28,840 nt of DNA from Candidatus Dadabacteria bacterium. Lineage in GTDB: Bacteria; Desulfobacterota_D; UBA1144; Nemesobacterales; CSP1-2. The stretch spans positions 1 to 28,840 of the forward strand of contig CAWDVW010000009.1 of assembly GCA_963805855.1 (NCBI GenBank), given 5' to 3'. Below are positions 21,540-28,840 of the stretch, in pieces (position 1 is the first letter of the stretch; every line of letters begins with the position of its first letter). Under the pieces are notes generated by a model. The model was not told the DNA's origin. It worked only from the letters and a program-made list of their open reading frames with translations, and ran no database searches. A program made the position numbers and the translations under genes.

Positions 21540-22122
21540 GTCTTCTTTCGCCAAGCTTTCAAAAGTAAATTGAAACGTTATTGAGTCTTACAAAGCGGCT
21601 TTCCAGCAGACAGGCTCCGATATCACCACGACTAGCTTTCTCTCCCCCATATTTGATGCGCGCCCATGGGCAGTTAACATTTTATGGACGGCCAGCTTTT
21701 TCGCCCTCGCCAAGGAAAGACCGCCCATTTCTTGTTGTAGCCGTTTTAATGATCATACTCCTTCGCATTGCTCGATCAATATCCTCCGTAATCTCACTGG
21801 AAATGGATTTGATTAATGTTTTAAACCCTTCGGTTCCATTTCCTTTAAGGCCGTAAGTAGTATACCTCAATGCTTGGGTAAGAGCGGTTCGAGGAGTTCA
21901 AGGTTTATCTCTGTGCTTTCGATAATATTCAGCCGATCATGAGGTGGCTGAATCATAATTCGTGCAGATTTACCGAGTGAAGGAAGGGACAATCCAATCA
22001 ACCGGCTGTTATACTCTGTTCTTTCTTTACTCAGAATCTCGCTTGTAATTCCTGCAAGTTAGCCGCTTTAGCTGGTCAAACCGAAATTAGAACTCGGAAG
22101 GAGATTTTCAATATAGGTAACT

Positions 22123-23127
22123 CTAGACGTATGGTAGATCAATCTTATGAGCCCAATACTGGTTACGCCTATACCAGTCTACAGTCTGCTCTAGCCCTGT
22201 TTCTAAAGTAGTACTGGGTGCCCAACCTAGCAGTTGTTTCGCTCTAGAAATATCCGCCCAGCTGGAGGGCATGTCACCCGGGAGAGGCTTGTTGTATTTT
22301 GTGAGAGCCCTTTTATCAAGAATATCCTCTAAAAGCGCAATGACAGAGATTAACGTTACAGGTCGATCGCTGCCCAAGTTAATCACCGCGTAACCGGAAT
22401 GGTTTAAAGCTAGCAACGTACCTTTCGCAATGTCGTCGATAAAAGTGAAGTCTCTCTCTTGGCGACCATTGCCGTAAACGATTACCGGCTCATTTTCGCT
22501 AATCCATTTGACAAACCTAAAGATGCTCATGTCCGGTCTTCCTGCCGGACCGTACACAGTAAAGTACCGGAGCACGGTTACATCTAGTCCATATAAATAG
22601 TGGTATGTATAGCAAATGCCCTCGGCTGCCTTTTTTGTAGCGGCGTATGGTGAAAGGGGTCTCTCGGTGTGTCGATCTTCCTGAAATGGACACTCCGTAT
22701 CCCCGTATACGCTGGATGATGAAGAAAGAACAAATTTTTTAACGCCATTTCTTCGACATAGATCCAATAGATTTAGTGTGCCCTTAACATTTGTTTCGTA
22801 GTATAGCCAAGGGTCGTGCAAACTTTGATTTACTCCCGCTCGTGCAGCCAGGTTTATCACTGCCTCAAGTGTTGGGTTTGTGGTGTCCGACTGCAGCTGC
22901 ATAGCAAATCCGAAAAATTCGTTAACAGACCTACGGTCGGTTATATCCAAGTAGTGAAAGCTGAATTGTGGATCCGCCTTAAGCTGTCGTAGCCTCCATT
23001 GTTTAAGTCTCACATCATAAGTGGTGTTTAAATTGTCCACCCCCAGAACGGTATGCCCCTGCTGAAGTAGAAGACTACTTACCTTCTGGCCTATGAAACC
23101 AGCACACCCCGTAACTAAGATACTCAT
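22123..23127 (-). CDS. UDP-glucuronate/uronate 4-epimerase-type NAD-dependent epimerase
   Basis: ILVTGCAGFIG, NLAARAGV, PLSPYAATKKAAE, LRYFTVYGPAGRPDM and RDFTFIDDI. Confidence 0.9.
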   Translation of the reverse strand: MSILVTGCAGFIGQKVSSLLLQQGHTVLGVDNLNTTYDVRLKQWRLRQLKADPQFSFHYLDITDRRSVNEFFGFAMQLQSDTTNPTLEAVINLAARAGVNQSLHDPWLYYETNVKGTLNLLDLCRRNGVKKFVLSSSSSVYGDTECPFQEDRHTERPLSPYAATKKAAEGICYTYHYLYGLDVTVLRYFTVYGPAGRPDMSIFRFVKWISENEPVIVYGNGRQERDFTFIDDIAKGTLLALNHSGYAVINLGSDRPVTLISVIALLEDILDKRALTKYNKPLPGDMPSSWADISRAKQLLGWAPSTTLETGLEQTVDWYRRNQYWAHKIDLPYV

Positions 23128-23316
23128 AACTTAAGACGATCTAACTTCTACTACGTTTTAAAAAAGGACTCTCCCTAGACTCTCGATCCGTTGATCTATT
23201 CACCGAATCCGCTTTCAACGGATAAACTCGACTCATACCGACAAAATCACTAGTGCCAACGTAATAACGGTCAAGAAATTAGTCAAACGATACCATTCGG
23301 CGATCCTTAGGAATAA

Positions 23317-24708
23317 TCATGCCTTAACGATTTTCCCCCTGCCGCTTCCTACGAACTTTGTTGCGTTTCTGGTATCTATGACAAGCTGACTCCTATCCGT
23401 TATCTCTTGCCAGTTATAACTTGAGTGGTCAGTAACGACGACAACGCAATCAAACTGCTCCAATACACCGTCTGTTAAAGGGACTGATTTCATGTTGAAA
23501 TTTGGATAATGACGAAACCCCGCAACATACGGCACATATGGATCATTATATTTAACATTCGCGCCATGGTCTTTCAAAATTGATATAATCCGCAGTGAAG
23601 GGGATTCTCTTGTGTCGTCCGTATCCTTCTTATATGACAATCCTAAAATTAGTATATTAGCGCCGTGTAAGCTCTTCTTTTTCTTAACCAGTTCATCGCT
23701 GATTTTACTAACTATGTAACTTGGCAAATTCGTGTTTATTTCGCCAGCAAGTTCTATAAACCTGGTTGGAATTCCGTAGGATCGCGCCTTCCAAGCCAGA
23801 TAGAAAGGGTCTATAGGTATGCAATGTCCCCCTAAGCCAGGCCCTGGATAAAACGGAGTAAATCCAAAAGGCTTTGTTGATGCGGCATCAATGACTTCCC
23901 ATATATCAATTCCCATTCTGTCGAATATTATTTTTAATTCATTGATAAGTGCTATGTTTACAGCCCTATAAATATTCTCTAAAAGTTTTGTCGCCTCCGC
24001 AGTCTTCGAAGAACTAACGGAATAAATTTTATTCACTATTTGCCTATAAAGTGTAGTCGCTAAAAAAAGACAGTCTTTCGTTACACCACTTATGACTCTA
24101 GCTATTTGAGAGGTCTGATAATCTTTATTCCCAGGGTCCACTCTTTCTGGGCAATACGCTAGGAAAAAATCCCTACCCACGTTAAGGTTTGCATTCTCTA
24201 GAATCGGAAGTACTTCTTCTTCCGTGGTGCCCGGATAAGTAGTGCTCTCAAGTACAACAAGCTGTCCTTTTTTTAGGTACTTTGATATTATCCGAGCAGT
24301 TTTAGTTATGAATGAAAGGTCTGGGTCGTTATCAGAATTAAGAGGAGTAGGTACGCAGATCAAAATGGCATCTGCTAGAGCGAGTCTTGAAAAGTCAGAC
24401 GTTGCCTGAAATTTTTCGTCTGCTAAAAGAGACGCAACGGTTTCTGATTCGATATAACTTATGTAGCTCTCACCTTGATTTAATTTATCTACCTTTCTTC
24501 TTTCAATATCGAAACCTAAGACGCTGAAGCCGGCCTTAAAAAACTCTACCACAAGTGGTAGCCCTATATAGCCAAGACCTATCACGGCTATGACTGCTTG
24601 TTTGGTTTCGAATTTCTCTGCAAGACATCGAACACTGACTGATTGCAAGTTATTGCGTTTCCTACTCTGATTTTTTCTTGCATGACCCTTATGCTTGACT
24701 TGCTTCAT
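23317..24708 (-). CDS. Nucleotide-sugar 6-dehydrogenase (WbpA/WecC/TviB-like UDP-HexNAc dehydrogenase)
   Basis: VIGLGYIGLP, ICVPTP, LESTTYPGTT, YCPERVDPG, KLLENIYRAVNIA, catalytic GGHCIPIDP and DTRESPS. The ORF extends to 24765; ATG 24708 is a plausible start. Confidence 0.92.
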   Translation of the reverse strand: MKQVKHKGHARKNQSRKRNNLQSVSVRCLAEKFETKQAVIAVIGLGYIGLPLVVEFFKAGFSVLGFDIERRKVDKLNQGESYISYIESETVASLLADEKFQATSDFSRLALADAILICVPTPLNSDNDPDLSFITKTARIISKYLKKGQLVVLESTTYPGTTEEEVLPILENANLNVGRDFFLAYCPERVDPGNKDYQTSQIARVISGVTKDCLFLATTLYRQIVNKIYSVSSSKTAEATKLLENIYRAVNIALINELKIIFDRMGIDIWEVIDAASTKPFGFTPFYPGPGLGGHCIPIDPFYLAWKARSYGIPTRFIELAGEINTNLPSYIVSKISDELVKKKKSLHGANILILGLSYKKDTDDTRESPSLRIISILKDHGANVKYNDPYVPYVAGFRHYPNFNMKSVPLTDGVLEQFDCVVVVTDHSSYNWQEITDRSQLVIDTRNATKFVGSGRGKIVKA

Positions 24709-24907
24709 CTCTTCACTTAAATCGGGCCTTAGGGTCCATTGTGGACATATTCGCTTTAGTATCAAATAAAAAGCTATCTAGCATCCAAGAGAACCTACGT
24801 GGTCACACATTTCAATTTAGATGTCATCATATGGCTTCGCCGTCTAACTTACAGTGACCAAAAGTTTAGCCACTACTAGGTTTAATCCTAGAGAGATTCG
24901 TGATTCT

Positions 24908-24936
24908 ATTTTATTTTCTGTACACATCAATTGCAA
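24908..24936 (-). promoter_or_regulatory. Candidate sigma70 promoter for the glycan cluster
   Basis: Minus strand TTGCAA-17 bp-TAAAAT, with an overlapping TTGATG-16 bp-TAGAAT, ~200 bp upstream of the first gene. Confidence 0.55.
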
Positions 24937-24945
24937 GTTGTCGAA

Positions 24946-25006
24946 TTGACTCATCAGAAATCTATCTGAAAAAGAATCGTTGCCTCATCTAAGAATCTAT
25001 TCAAAA
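24946..25006. repeat. Left-end IS repeats (two copies)
   Basis: TTGACTCATCAGAAATCTATCTGAAAA (24946-24972) and TTGCCTCATCTAAGAATCTATTCAAAA (24980-25006); 34-bp period. Confidence 0.8.
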
Positions 25007-25040
25007 TAGTCTCCCCTTAGACAGATAACGGGAGGCATAG

Positions 25041-26318
25041 ATGAGGCTAACCATGAAAGAAAGAAGATCGGTCAGTCGAGTAGTAGCGAAGAGGTATCAG
25101 AAAGCCACTAAAAAGGACAAAGGCACCATCCTTGGCGAGTACACACAACTGACGGGGTATAATCGCTGTTACGCTGCTTTTTTGTTAAGGAATCATGGCC
25201 GGAGAATGAGGATCAATAATAACACTGTTTTGGTGGGGGACTGCAGAAAGAGGGTTAAGAGGAACAGGAACAGGACCTACGATGAGCAGGTAGTTAGGGT
25301 TTTGAAGAGGGTATGGCTGATCATGGGTTTTATATGCGGTAAGAGACTTAAGCCAGCCTTGAAGGAGGTGATTCCCGTCTTGGAGAAGTATAAGGAGATA
25401 GAGCTGGATAAGACCGTCAGAGAGAAATTGTCTAAGATCTCTGCCGCCACTATAGACAGAGTATTAGCTTTGGAGCGTAAGAAAAGGTCCCTTCGCCATA
25501 GAGCCAGGACTAAGCCGGGCACATTGCTCAAGCATCAGATACCGATAAGGACCTTCTGTGAGTGGGATGAGCAACGACCGGGTTTTGTAGAGATAGACCT
25601 GGTGGGGCACGAGGGAGGAGACCCCAGTGGGGAGTATATCCAGACCCTGGATATGACCGATGTATGCACCGGTTGGACTGAGACCCAGGCGGCTAAGAAC
25701 AAGGCCCGGGTGTGGGTGTTTGAGGCACTTAAGGAAATAAGAAAGCGCTTACCTTTTGAGCTCCTGGGAATAGATTCAGACAATGGGTCAGAGTTTATAA
25801 ATGATCATCTCTATGGTTACTGTGAGGAGGAGAAGATCACTTTTACCAGGGCCCGAGCTTATCGGAAGAATGATAACTGCTACGTAGAGCAAAAGAACTA
25901 CTCAGTGGTCAGGCGTGGGGTGGGTTATCATCGTTATGATACTCCCGGGCAACTACGACTGTTAAACCAAATGTATTCCCGCTTAAGGCTATATACTAAC
26001 TACTTCCAGCCGGTGATGAAACTGGAGGAAAAGATTCGGGTGGGAAGCAAGGTGAAGAAGAGGTATGACCAGCCAAGGACACCATACCACAGGGTGTTAG
26101 AATCACCCTTGGTGGAGAAAGAACACAAGAAAAAGTTAAACCAAGAGTATGCTAAACTAAATCCGGCGGAACTGAGAAGACAGATAACCGCACTACAAAT
26201 TAAGCTCAGAAAGTTGGCAGCAAAAGAAAATTTAAGAAAAAGAAATCAAAAACAGAATTACAAAAATGAGAAAAATCAAAAAGATTTAGAGTATATTTTA
26301 CGTGAGGCAACGAATTAA
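25041..26318 (+). CDS. DDE-type transposase (integrase core/rve domain)
   Basis: N-terminal HTH-like region (ILGEYTQLTGYNRCYAAFLL). Catalytic triad in FVEIDLVGH, IDSDNGSEFIN and KNDNCYVEQKN. GGAGG RBS at 25031-25035. Confidence 0.93.
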   Translation: MRLTMKERRSVSRVVAKRYQKATKKDKGTILGEYTQLTGYNRCYAAFLLRNHGRRMRINNNTVLVGDCRKRVKRNRNRTYDEQVVRVLKRVWLIMGFICGKRLKPALKEVIPVLEKYKEIELDKTVREKLSKISAATIDRVLALERKKRSLRHRARTKPGTLLKHQIPIRTFCEWDEQRPGFVEIDLVGHEGGDPSGEYIQTLDMTDVCTGWTETQAAKNKARVWVFEALKEIRKRLPFELLGIDSDNGSEFINDHLYGYCEEEKITFTRARAYRKNDNCYVEQKNYSVVRRGVGYHRYDTPGQLRLLNQMYSRLRLYTNYFQPVMKLEEKIRVGSKVKKRYDQPRTPYHRVLESPLVEKEHKKKLNQEYAKLNPAELRRQITALQIKLRKLAAKENLRKRNQKQNYKNEKNQKDLEYILREATN

Positions 26319-26346
26319 CTTTCAAATAGATATTAATGTGAGGCAA
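26284..26346. repeat. Right-end IS repeats (two copies, inverted relative to the left end)
   Basis: ATTTAGAGTATATTTTACGTGAGGCAA (26284-26310, inside the transposase 3' end) and TTTCAAATAGATATTAATGTGAGGCAA (26320-26346); 36-bp period. Confidence 0.8.
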
Positions 26347-26356
26347 TAGTGTGGTA

Positions 26357-26386
26357 TTGCAAGTGGTATCAATCTAGGGGTAAAAT
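26357..26386 (+). promoter_or_regulatory. Candidate sigma70 promoter facing the metal ABC genes
   Basis: TTGCAA (26357-26362)-18 bp-TAAAAT (26381-26386). Confidence 0.45.
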
Positions 26387-26549
26387 ACAAATCTAGACTA
26401 GACACAAGAGAAAAATCTAACCCATGCTGTACTCTTCTCATACAAATCTTAAAAAACCAAAGAAGCTCCAGCTAGTTGACTAGAGAAAGATTTCATATTC
26501 ACCTACATTGTCTCAGTTTTTCTTTATGGTAATAATTTAAGGTCAATTT

Positions 26550-27249
26550 ATGGATAATGAAATTCTGACTGTCAGGAACTTAAATGTAACACTTAACGGT
26601 GAAGAGATACTCAAAGATCTCAGCTTCAACGTAAAAAGGGGAGAAGTGTTGGTGATATTAGGACCCAATGGAGCTGGTAAAACAACACTTTTTAAAACTA
26701 TTTTGGGCCTTTTACCCCACAGTGGGGAAGTTGAGTGGAATGCCAAAAGAATTAGTTATCTGCCACCCCAGGAATTGCTTCATAGAAAGGACCTCCCTCC
26801 CGCTGGTATTGGAAGATTTCTTTAAGTTTAAGAATGTTAATGATGGACAAATCACACAGACATTAAATCTAGTCGGCCTGGAACCATCAATTCTGAAGAA
26901 AGGCTTCGGCGCATTGTCGACAGGAGAATTCCAAAGAATGCTAATTGCATGGGGATTAGTTGACGAGCCTGAGGTCCTTTTATTCGACGAACCTACTTCA
27001 GGCATCGACCTGGGAGGTCAAGAAACTGTTTATACCCTCCTACATAATTTTTGGAAGGAACACAGTTTGACAATACTACTGATCACCCACGATTTAAGTA
27101 TTGTCTGGGGGCATGCTGATAGTGTTCTATGTCTCAACAAGAGCTACTTTTGCTACGGTAAGCCACAGGAATTAATCACTCCTGAGCAATTGAAAAAACT
27201 CTATGGCACTGGCGTTGAGTTTTATAAGCATTCACATTTAGGTAACTAG
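26550..27249 (+). CDS. znuC: Zn/Mn ABC transporter ATP-binding subunit (~232 aa), one apparent +1 frameshift near 26793-26815
   Basis: Walker A GPNGAGKTT is in ORF 26550-26825. LSTGEFQR, LLFDEPTSGID, ITHD and His-containing tail YKHSH are in ORF 26668-27249. 700 nt minus 1 = 233 codons. Confidence 0.8.
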
Positions 27250-27250
27250 C

Positions 27251-28013
27251 ATGCAATTGATCCTAGCATTGTTACTCGGAACGTTTATTTGCGGAGTAGC
27301 GGGTTACTTGGGTTCTCTAATGGTAAGTAAAAGAATGTCACTTATGGGAGGAGCCTTGGGACACCTGGCCCTACAGGGCATTGCCCTTGCTTTGATATAC
27401 GGTTTCGATATATCCCTTGGAGCAATAGTGTTCTTGGTATTTGGAATCAGGGTCTTGATATGGTTATTTGAGCTTAGAACGAATTTACCACTTGAGGCCC
27501 TTACAGCAATTGTTTTTTCTGCTTCGTTATCAGTAGCCTTTCTTTTCTTACCAGAGGAAGAAACAACGGAAGCCTTGATCGGTGACATTTCCAAAATCAC
27601 CCTAACCGATACAGTAATTACAGTAATAGTCTCCTTGATCATCTTCTTTGTAATCAAAAAGATCTTTAGAAACATCGTATTTGCTAGCGTCTCTGAAGAC
27701 TTAGCCAAGGTGAGTGGAATAAACATACGCATAATGAATCTAGTTTTTCTGATCTGTATAGCCGCGGTAGTTGCCATTGGAGTTAAGGTAGTAGGTGGCC
27801 TTTTAACTGCAGCCCTAGTCGCTATACCGGCAAGCACCAGTAAGAATATGAGTAAAAACCTATTTCAGTATTTCCTACGGAGGACTACTTCTGGGTAGTA
27901 CAGCGGGCATATTCGGAATAATAGGATTCCAGCTAACTGGTATCCCTGCAGGTCCCCTAATCATCATAACAAGCGCAGTATTCTTTTTGATCTCTTTATT
28001 ATTTGTGAAATAG
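27251..28013 (+). CDS. znuB: Zn/Mn ABC transporter permease (~253 aa), one apparent +1 frameshift at 27871-27873
   Basis: KRMSLMGGALGHLAL, EDLAKVSGI and KVVGGLLTAALVAIPA. Removing one T gives QYSYGGLLLGSTAGIFGIIGFQLTGIPAGPLIIITSAVFFLISLLFVK with stop at 28011-28013. Confidence 0.8.
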
Positions 28014-28043
28014 GTAAATGCCAAAGATTCAAAAACTAGACGA

Positions 28044-28296
28044 CGCGGATCATCAGCCCGCCGCGCATGTTGGCCCAGCGGCGCGCGTCCATGTAGGAGT
28101 ACTTCACCTTGTATTCGGAATAGACGCTGCGCTGGCCCTTGCCCTTGATGCGCAGTTGAAACGGCTTCCACTTCAGCCGGATGCGGTATGCGTCCTCGAG
28201 CGCGAAGGCGGGATCGAAGGCGAGAAAGGCATAGGGGCTCTTGAAGTCGGAATACATTTTGACTTCGGCCAAGCCCTGGGCCAAATCGTCCGCCAT
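28044..28296 (-). CDS. DsbA-family / 2-hydroxychromene-2-carboxylate isomerase-like protein, 3'-truncated at the GC junction
   Basis: MYSDFKSPYAFLA, WKPFQL and YMDARRWAN; only ~85 aa before the composition break; high GC. Confidence 0.75.
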
Positions 28297-28359
28297 CGGC
28301 GCCTCCCTTGGTCGTTCTTTATCGCTTCAGGGAAACGCTATGCCGCCGCCGGTGCTTGT

Positions 28360-28840
28360 CTACGCCTGCGCGGGCTTGGCCGCCGGCATCCTGATGCTGC
28401 GCCCGGCGCCTGCCGGCACCGGCAGCTTGGCATGCGCTTCCTTCATCGCCGCCAGCCGGCGCAGCACGTCGTCGGGCAAGGGCGCCACCTTCTTCGCCGT
28501 CATATCGACGTGCAGCGTCATGTTCTCGGAGGTGGCCGACACCCAGCCTTCCTCGGCGTGCTTGAGCGTTTCGAAATAATGAATGCGCTTGGCATCGAAA
28601 TCGAGCAGCTGGAACTCCACCCGCACCGGATCGCCTTCATGGATTTCGCGCAAATAGCGCACGTGCACCTCGGCGGTGAAGGTCGAGTGCCCGCTGCGTT
28701 TGAGGTAGCTCGGCCCGATGCCCAACTGCTCGTAGACCTCGTCCACCCGCGGTCGAACAGCACGTTGTAATAGGCCATGTTGAGATGGCCGTTATAGTCG
28801 ATCCATTGCGGCTCGACCTTCATGACCGAGGAGACGAAGG
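28360..28840 (-). CDS. Hotdog-fold (4HBT-like) thioesterase; start lies beyond the window edge; one-base frameshift near 28746-28749
   Basis: WIDYNGHLNMAYYNVLFDR (ORF 28518-28823) continues into VDEVYEQLG...FTAEVHVRYLREI...LHVDM (ORF 28360-28746). Confidence 0.82.

Follow-up and report, generated by a model that had tools for sequence, protein, structure and literature searches.

One critical question raised by this locus is why an insertion sequence (IS) should lie between two copies of the same short repeat, each of which reads as the −35 box of a promoter pointing away from the element. The stretch analyzed here, hereafter the window, comprises 28,840 nucleotides of a Candidatus Dadabacteria genome (contig CAWDVW010000009.1). 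The first-pass annotation had proposed that the IS inserted at, and duplicated, a single palindromic −35 box shared by two divergent promoters. Comparison with related copies points to another account, to which we assign a probability of roughly 0.8: an integrase-type IS, producing a 5-bp target duplication, would have inserted with its left end 5 bp from a −35 box, and a 12-bp repeat now found on both sides of it would have pre-existed.

The limits of the element were set by multi-copy alignment. Copies from relatives align solely across positions 24942-26350, both when the element was searched with BLAST and when the search was repeated with its flanks; in both cases, the alignments run from position 1-4 to position 1412-1414 of the query (24939-26355, 1417 bases). 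Three contigs consisting of the element only (L005, L032, and L085) are each exactly 1409 bp. Because the alignments stop there and the three element-only contigs equal this length, the element is assigned to 24942-26350 (plus strand; 1409 bp; ends CGAATTGACTCA...TGAGGCAATAGT), and on these alignments it is one intact copy. Its outer ends, fixed by the duplications, read CGAATTG ... CAATAGT. Each end carries two copies of a site of approximately 30 bp with the core TTGCCTCA, spaced 34-36 bp, which presumably binds the transposase. In the left end (24942-25012, plus strand), the two copies are direct, with cores TTGACTCA at 24946-24953 and TTGCCTCA at 24980-24987; in the right end (26283-26350, plus strand), two copies of the same presumed site are inverted, with cores TGAGGCAA at 26302-26309 and 26338-26345, 36 bp apart. 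The left end is evidenced by the inverted-repeat pairs I1 and I4 and by the two-site architecture of every aligned relative, and the right end by direct repeat D8, the same inverted repeats, and the right-end alignments.

What lies outside the left end was compared in two sets of flanks in which transposase identity ranges from 56 to 100%. The discovery set consisted of 30 distinct left flanks (that of the window and 29 from other genomes), read outward from the element, while the replication set, drawn from a metagenome collection, held 80 loci with 57 distinct left and 46 distinct right flanks. The promoter score is the number of matches to TTGACA-(16-18)-TATAAT, with a maximum of 12. In the discovery set, TTG is found at positions 5-7 in 26 of 30 flanks, mostly as TTGACA at 6-11 with a TATAAT-like hexamer 16-18 bp further on. 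A score of at least 9/12, starting 4-7 bp outside the left end, is reached by 23 of the 30, the background being 0.92% of 200,000 random positions in the window's genome and 1.5% of shuffled flanks. The replication set gave TTG at positions 6-8 in 44/57 left versus 1/46 right flanks (T, T, and G in 93, 89, and 82% of the left ones, respectively) and scores of at least 9 in 35/57 versus 0/46, with the −35 hexamer starting at position 6 in 32 of these 35.

Combining the left flanks under a strict left-end anchor yields 85, in which TTG starts at position 6 in 59, at position 5 in six, and at position 7 in two; it is thus exactly 5 bp outside the left end in 59/85 and 4-6 bp outside in 67/85. The hexamer is exactly TTGACA in 24 and TTGCAA in three. 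Among the 59 position-6 flanks, a −10 hexamer matching at least 5/6 is present in 31 (2.7% in shuffled sequence) and TAnnnT in 46 (6.5%). The right flanks (n = 79) carry no positional signal past the first base of the duplication. A co-oriented open reading frame (ORF) of at least 80 amino acids, starting 30-300 nt outward, accompanies 46/60 left versus 14/30 right flanks. In this family, the left end (the one on the 5′ side of the transposase gene) is located 5 bp upstream of the −35 box of a predicted, outward-firing σ70-type promoter. The duplicated bases are thus those that immediately precede the −35 box, and neither the core promoter nor its gene is disrupted. The first-pass annotation had suggested a promoter-targeting, host-sparing strategy and had named beforehand, as its test, −35/−10 pairs at fixed spacing beside other copies. 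Such pairs are present in most left flanks, and the strategy extends across the family in an orientation-specific form, with the core promoter intact (59/85 flanks at 5 bp). As a family rule, the adjoining promoter concerns the left end only; TTG occurs at that distance in 1/46 right flanks.

Several individual copies illustrate the rule. In genome G001, the four left flanks of copies that are 91-93% identical (L006, L014, L023, and L031) all obey it, and the geometry also fits a copy only 47% identical, from a plasmid of Mycobacterium riyadhense, where the duplication is CTACC and TTGCAT starts at position 6. Other matches in the Mycobacterium plasmid were considered as further copies and rejected, being different elements. 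At L042, the right duplication copy GAGTG is followed at once by approximately 19 nt of a second left end; this stump looks like the trace of a second hit on one promoter beside an older, mostly deleted copy. Since the insertion rule leaves the promoter in place, a targeted promoter remains a target, as the stump at L042 illustrates.

The same counts bear on two simpler explanations. Insertion might be random, with purifying selection retaining those copies that landed at harmless spots upstream of promoters. A bias toward intergenic survival is general among insertion sequences, and 14/30 right flanks also face a gene start, but selection cannot yield one-base precision (59/85 at exactly 5 bp) or so strict an orientation (44/57 left versus 1/46 right), nor does it explain why all four left flanks in G001 conform; we regard this explanation as very improbable. 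Alternatively, the TTGACA-N17-TATAAT motif could be the element's own outward promoter, given that it adjoins the left end in most copies and that many insertion sequences carry outward −35 boxes. The duplication, however, separates the hexamer from the element; copies with near-identical ends (L004, L018, L024, and L026) differ wholly in their 5 bp, spacers, and −10 regions; and the flanks run on into unrelated host genes, so that this explanation is scarcely credible. The first-pass annotation had itself raised the possibility that TTGCAA is part of the element ends; it is outside them, with the duplication in between.

In the window, the geometry conforms to the family rule: left end, 5 bp, TTGCAA, 17 bp, TAAAAT. 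The predicted targeted host promoter occupies 24908-24936 on the minus strand (−35 TTGCAA at 24936-24931, 17-bp spacer, −10 TAAAAT at 24913-24908) and is directed toward a UDP-glucose dehydrogenase gene, whose ORF, in the same orientation, opens 176 nt beyond the left end. On the other side, a consensus scan finds a second promoter-like site, TTGCAA-18-TAAAAT, at 26357-26386 on the plus strand, facing znuC. Both sites, which the first-pass annotation had already read as TTGCAA-17-TAAAAT on the minus and TTGCAA-18-TAAAAT on the plus strand, are present with a score of 9/12 each. The region 24700-26650 contains eight sites of the 9/12 type as opposed to 3.4 ± 2.1 in shuffles, and therefore two such hexamer sites in the window alone prove nothing. 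Judged by the right flanks of the family, the right-hand promoter-like site is peculiar to the window locus and outside the rule. A further candidate promoter, TTGTCT-17-AATAAT at 26508-26536, is nearer to znuC.

The length of the target duplication was determined from copies for which both ends are available. Under strict pairing, 53 two-ended copies gave eight perfect 5-bp pairs, namely GTCCT (L004), GAATC (L006), GCGGA (L040), GAGTG (L042), GCAGC (L043), GGATT (L092), GGCGC (L112), and TCCCT (L145), together with three that match at 4/5 positions, including that of the window; with looser pairing, L048 and L144 are perfect as well. By chance, all five positions would match in approximately 0.1% of copies, and the duplication is 5 bp in every copy that shows one. 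Read from these pairs, insertion duplicates 5 bp, those immediately upstream of the −35 hexamer. Placed by the family ends, the window's two copies are GTTGT (24937-24941) and GTGGT (26351-26355), identical at 4/5 positions. The left junction is reproduced by a short-read contig of run X1 spanning 24866-25414, with one difference, which is inside the element, and the right junction by an independent contig of the same run (record 7) spanning 26321-26647, with no differences; the T/G difference between the two copies is therefore real. In the metagenome contig pairs L092/L093 and L104/L105, a common right flank is joined to different left flanks.

How, then, did the longer repeat arise? The 9-mer ATTGCAAGT occurs at 24930-24938 and 26356-26364, as the first-pass annotation had reported and as the sequence and a repeat search both bear out. 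Allowing one mismatch, it grows to the 12-mer ATTGCAAGT[T/G]GT (repeat search, D14), the left copy of which, ATTGCAAGTTGT at 24930-24941, contains the −35 box and the left duplication, while the right copy, ATTGCAAGTGGT at 26356-26367, begins just past the right duplication. An exact direct repeat of at least 9 was encountered in 0.38% of 20,000 shuffles of the two 40-nt flanks, and a chance origin is unlikely; the 9-mer is not enriched genome-wide (37 seen, 32 expected). A near-copy of the right-flank 20-mer at C5:1002916, in coding-looking DNA, was taken as chance.

The 9-mers had been thought to flank the IS ends directly. With relatives aligning only to 24942-26350, gaps of 3 bp on the left and 5 bp on the right separate them from the element, the base order being ...ACATCA ATTGCAA GTTGT [element] GTGGT ATTGCAA GTGGT ATCAATC... 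Because the right 12-mer copy lies outside the duplication, the repeat was not produced by the present insertion. Once the element and one 5-bp copy are removed, what is left is a tandem 12-mer, in which 6 bp separate the two TTGCAA boxes. Most simply, we infer, the empty site held this tandem 12-mer, with two TTGCAA boxes belonging to back-to-back divergent promoters, and the element inserted between them. The proposed duplication of a shared box thus gives way to a family duplication of 5 bp with the right 12-mer copy beyond it, and the single TTGCAA of the earlier empty site becomes two.

That earlier model still deserves a hearing. It supposes that one palindromic TTGCAA was common to two divergent promoters and that a duplication of 9 bp (or 12 bp) gave each of them a copy; the repeat is indeed real and improbable by chance, a −10-like hexamer stands 17 or 18 bp past both copies, and the two −10 regions are themselves alike (inverted repeat I15). 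Yet under this model the element would have to start at 24939 or 24942 and stop at 26355, and no relative aligns past 26350-26352. The extra GTGGT would have to be borne by the element and nevertheless equal the final five bases of the newly made duplication. Wherever a duplication is seen in the family, its length is 5 bp, and no other right flank repeats its left −35 box. We consider it improbable. The only other case seen with a right-side box as well is that of the L106 left and L108 right flanks, which have the 5-mer TAGTG in common and combine to ATGCAA-TAGTG-TTGCAT, a pair of opposed −35-like hexamers with 5 bp between them. As sources of the 12-mer, a 17-bp stagger, excision footprints, and a second insertion were each tried and rejected, since none of them yields the observed base order.

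If the element homes to promoters, what does it recognize? Two steps are legible in the flanks themselves: integration with a 5-bp stagger takes place immediately upstream of the −35 hexamer, and the left end always faces the promoter. In the mechanism that we favor, the transpososome would be positioned by the promoter as a whole, and its orientation would follow from the asymmetry of the two tips, which read CGAA/CGCA at the left end and vary at the right. The promoter might be recognized through contact with the promoter-bound RNA polymerase holoenzyme, with σ region 4 on the −35 box, a suggestion for which we would claim a little less than an even chance. It is favored because the target consensus is the σ70 consensus and not the element's own TTGCCTCA core, because the −10 hexamer, approximately 28-34 bp from the insertion point, is strongly enriched, and because, of the 18 flanks that lack TTG, nine keep a −10 of at least 5/6 at the expected place (7.4% in shuffles).

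The same homing rule could arise without RNA polymerase if the transposase itself reads TTGAC, a sequence resembling its own end core (TTGCCTCA/TTGACTCA), by target mimicry, with −10 hexamers present through the survival of copies in intergenic promoter DNA. The end sites begin TTG(A/C)C four bases from the tip, near to the 5-bp target offset; the −35 boxes are unusually close to consensus (exact TTGACA in 24/85); and direct binding easily explains single-base precision. On the other hand, the target follows TTGACA rather than TTGCCTCA, with no TCA signal at positions 11-13, and the nine TTG-less sites with a −10 so far from the insertion point also count against it. Direct readout is, in our view, somewhat less probable than holoenzyme contact, though a strong competitor. 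Holoenzyme contact would by analogy parallel the tethering of Ty3 to TFIIIB and the proposal made for TnGBS. The broadest form of the idea, that a very large, cross-phylum clade of integrase-type IS docks on the holoenzyme and inserts at exactly 5 bp on the upstream side of the −35 box, is tentative and somewhat short of evens. Should it be true, the family would be a bacterial counterpart of Ty3-TFIIIB tethering whose evolution owes nothing to the Mutator-like TnGBS/ISLre2 elements. Its insertions would then flag functional σ70 promoters in bacteria that are uncultivated, and tandem arrays would grow through successive hits on a single promoter.

A number of points weigh against the account given here. 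All of the promoters are predicted, as matches to a consensus, and 18/85 left flanks are without TTG at positions 5-7. The flanks were deduplicated by sequence alone and related genomes are not independent, so that the binomial figure for the discovery set (approximately 1e-41) is overstated. The window's own duplication is imperfect (GTTGT / GTGGT), and 42 of the 53 two-ended copies agree at 3 or fewer of the five positions. The mismatched copies are mostly short metagenome contigs, and chimeric assembly across the repeat may account for many of the absent duplications. Rhizobial homologues at approximately 39% identity have longer ends with no evident −35 box adjoining. The tandem 12-mer is a reconstruction. 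No empty allele was recovered, though one may exist all the same: 14 same-family genomes contain no DNA homologous to the left flank, znuC homologues are present in the same-genus genomes G001 and G002 but their upstream DNA is not alignable with the window, the contigs of four salt-marsh runs contain no joint across the element, and a gapped two-flank pattern matched nothing in metagenome contigs. Finally, enrichment of the −10 hexamer could reflect selection for harmless sites instead of recognition, and contact between transposase and polymerase is inferred only.

The single gene of the element (25041-26318, plus strand) encodes a transposase of 425 amino acids, identified from its ORF and Pfam as an RNase-H-fold DDE enzyme (D186, D247, and E283). 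At 25.8 bits (E 1.3e-5), its match to Pfam rve does not reach the cut-off of 32.6 bits; among 60 aligned relatives, 57 match this Pfam family. In the transposase alignment, D186 and E283 are invariant, and D247 and R291 are near-invariant. An AlphaFold (AF2) model, with a predicted local distance difference test (pLDDT) of 87 and a predicted template modeling score (pTM) of 0.76, is laid out as N-terminal helical domains of DNA-binding type, an RNase H fold, a small β unit, and C-terminal helices. Its structural neighbors are retroviral integrases (Z approximately 15, some 150 residues), IstA, the transposase of IS21 (Z 13.9, 215 residues), the integrase of Ty3 in complex with TFIIIB (Z 12.8), and TnsB (Z 11.4), with Foldseek in agreement. 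Searching the PDB with the single transposase sequence gave no match, and searching it with a profile gave integrase cores only, at E of approximately 1e-4. The transposase is a DDE enzyme of the retroviral-integrase type.

The best curated model for the transposase is that of IS481 (NF033577; E 9.2e-11, 41.8 bits, residues 123-305), the cut-off of which, 224, is not reached. The element resembles IS481 in its single rve transposase and short duplication and differs in its two-site ends; the IS481 transposase has approximately 330 amino acids, making that of the window about 100 longer. NCBI labels close and distant homologues alike as "ISNCY family transposase." Within that category, the ISLbi1 group (ISLbi1, ISLbp8, and ISBj12) comprises elements of 1.4-1.5 kb with a 5-bp duplication and a single rve-type transposase of approximately 400-430 amino acids, a range that includes the window element (1409 bp, 5 bp, and 425 amino acids). 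The existence of this group in ISfinder is recorded in Table 3 of PMC13046281. The window element probably belongs to the ISLbi1 group of the ISNCY category.

ISNCY homologues at approximately 39% identity, from rhizobial and Acidiphilium plasmids (L166-L169, L072, and L074), have the same two inner end sites and, in addition, a conserved outer inverted repeat (CGCTCTCATCCTGAT...) that places their true ends approximately 25-30 nt farther out. The ISBj12-like rhizobial copies, with this extra repeat and no evident adjoining −35 box, are unlike the window element; copies from Bradyrhizobium are fragmented, with longer ends, and hence carry no target information. In a tblastn search of plasmids, the Leptospira and Bradyrhizobium matches were below 60% identity, and Acinetobacter, which is rich in IS1202 elements, was absent among the ten most frequent organisms listed.

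By comparison, the promoter-seeking TnGBS conjugative elements, ISLre2 family, and ISKra4 group are Mutator-like; their insertions lie 15-17 bp upstream of the −35 box, and it is the right end that adjoins the promoter (PMC3942029). The orientation relative to the promoter is likewise fixed in the window family (44/57 left versus 1/46 right flanks), but here the left end is the adjoining one and the distance is 5 bp in 59/85 and 4-6 bp in 67/85. The enzymes also belong to unrelated superfamilies, theirs being a Mutator-like (p-MULT) transposase and that of the window an rve enzyme with integrase, IstA, and TnsB as neighbors. In geometry, the closest system is the ISAjo2 subgroup of the IS1202 family (PMC10132070, Harmer, Pong and Hall 2023): elements of approximately 1.5 kb with one large DDE transposase, extra internal binding sites, and a 5-bp duplication, which insert in one orientation exactly 5 bp from the XerC site at dif/pdif, direct contact with XerC having been proposed. 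The target there is a recombination site, whereas here it is a promoter. Of the features of IS1202, the TGT...ACA ends are replaced in the window element by CG...GT, and the Q at E+7 given in PMC10132070 is V290 in the window transposase (E283 + 7). IS1202 has a TnsB-like domain order; the window model scores Z 11.4 with TnsB, and retroviral integrases and IstA score higher.

A more distant parallel is Ty3, in which an initiation factor fixes the distance between the integration site and the start of transcription (cited in PMC3942029). The catalytic fold in the Ty3 integrase-TFIIIB structure (PDB 7q5b) is the same as that of the window transposase (Z 12.8, 157 residues aligned, root-mean-square deviation 3.7). 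Ty3 is a eukaryotic retrotransposon that acts at polymerase III genes, and any tethering of the window element would be by analogy. No paper on promoter targeting by an rve-type bacterial IS was found in full-text searches of a literature that lacks most subscription journals, and none in the same literature reports it for the ISLbi1 group.

Within that literature, promoter-directed insertion is documented only for Mutator-like elements, and the case described here concerns an unrelated, integrase-type family with a different geometry, 5 bp from the −35 box as against 15-17 bp. On the evidence of its flanks, the window element behaves like the known promoter-seeking elements and appears to be a new version of such behavior, which would represent convergent "safe-haven" targeting in a family very widespread among environmental bacteria. 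It makes a connection of a transposase with the transcription initiation complex open to testing, and each copy points to a likely promoter in genomes without mapped ones. Two warnings for annotators follow: a TTGACA box beside such an element is the host's and not the element's, and a direct repeat close to an element need not be the target duplication of that element.

When 60 relatives were searched at the DNA level, the element proved to be present in 10 of the 14 other same-family genomes, with full copies 91-96% identical, and in none of 46 genomes from other families of the order. The window's genome has one full copy plus a 47-bp right-end remnant on another contig (G000 contig C7, 391028-391074; L002 1501-1547), which is 98% identical and has no transposase gene nearby; this solitary right end is the relic of a lost copy. 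Transposase homologues form 13,014 clusters at 50% identity (E up to 0.001). Copies are labeled as from Thermodesulfobacteriota, Betaproteobacteria, Acidobacteriota, WOR-3, Thermotogae, Nitrospiraceae, and other hosts. Copies whose proteins are 89-94% identical to the window transposase are also filed in archaeal bins (Bathyarchaeota and Nitrososphaerales; L035, protein P0008) on contigs of 2.5-4 kb, for which mis-binning of a multi-copy element is more likely than transfer to archaea. L010 and L011, considered as miniature derivatives, were rejected as such; both are the left ends of diverged full copies.

The first gene past the targeted promoter is the UDP-glucose/GDP-mannose dehydrogenase gene (23317-24765, minus strand; Pfam PF03721, PF00984, and PF03720), after which comes an epimerase gene; Pfam places znuC- and znuB-like ABC transporter genes to the right of the element. 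Rfam contains no family matching 22000-28840. The dehydrogenase flank (the 1-24941 side) has no DNA homologue in the 14 family genomes, and contigs from runs X2-X4 match the window from 26452 rightwards with unrelated sequence before that point. A strain-specific island ending near 26452 thus seems to include the element, both TTGCAA boxes, and the glycan cluster. By its boundary, between the right promoter-like site and znuC, is a terminator-like hairpin with a T run (26466-26485, minus strand), which may be due to chance (two found, 1.3 expected).

The znuC-like ABC ATPase gene (26550-27249, plus strand) is divided between two overlapping frames of 91 and 193 amino acids, each of which matches Pfam ABC_tran. 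One base at 26799 is missing from the contigs of all four runs, and the homologue in the same genus is intact at 232 amino acids; an assembly error, or a change private to the strain, probably accounts for the frameshift. The znuB-like ORF that follows (27251-27898) has 215 amino acids, as opposed to 252 for the ORF at the same position in G002 (L063 2218-2976), and may be truncated or have its start mis-set by another indel.

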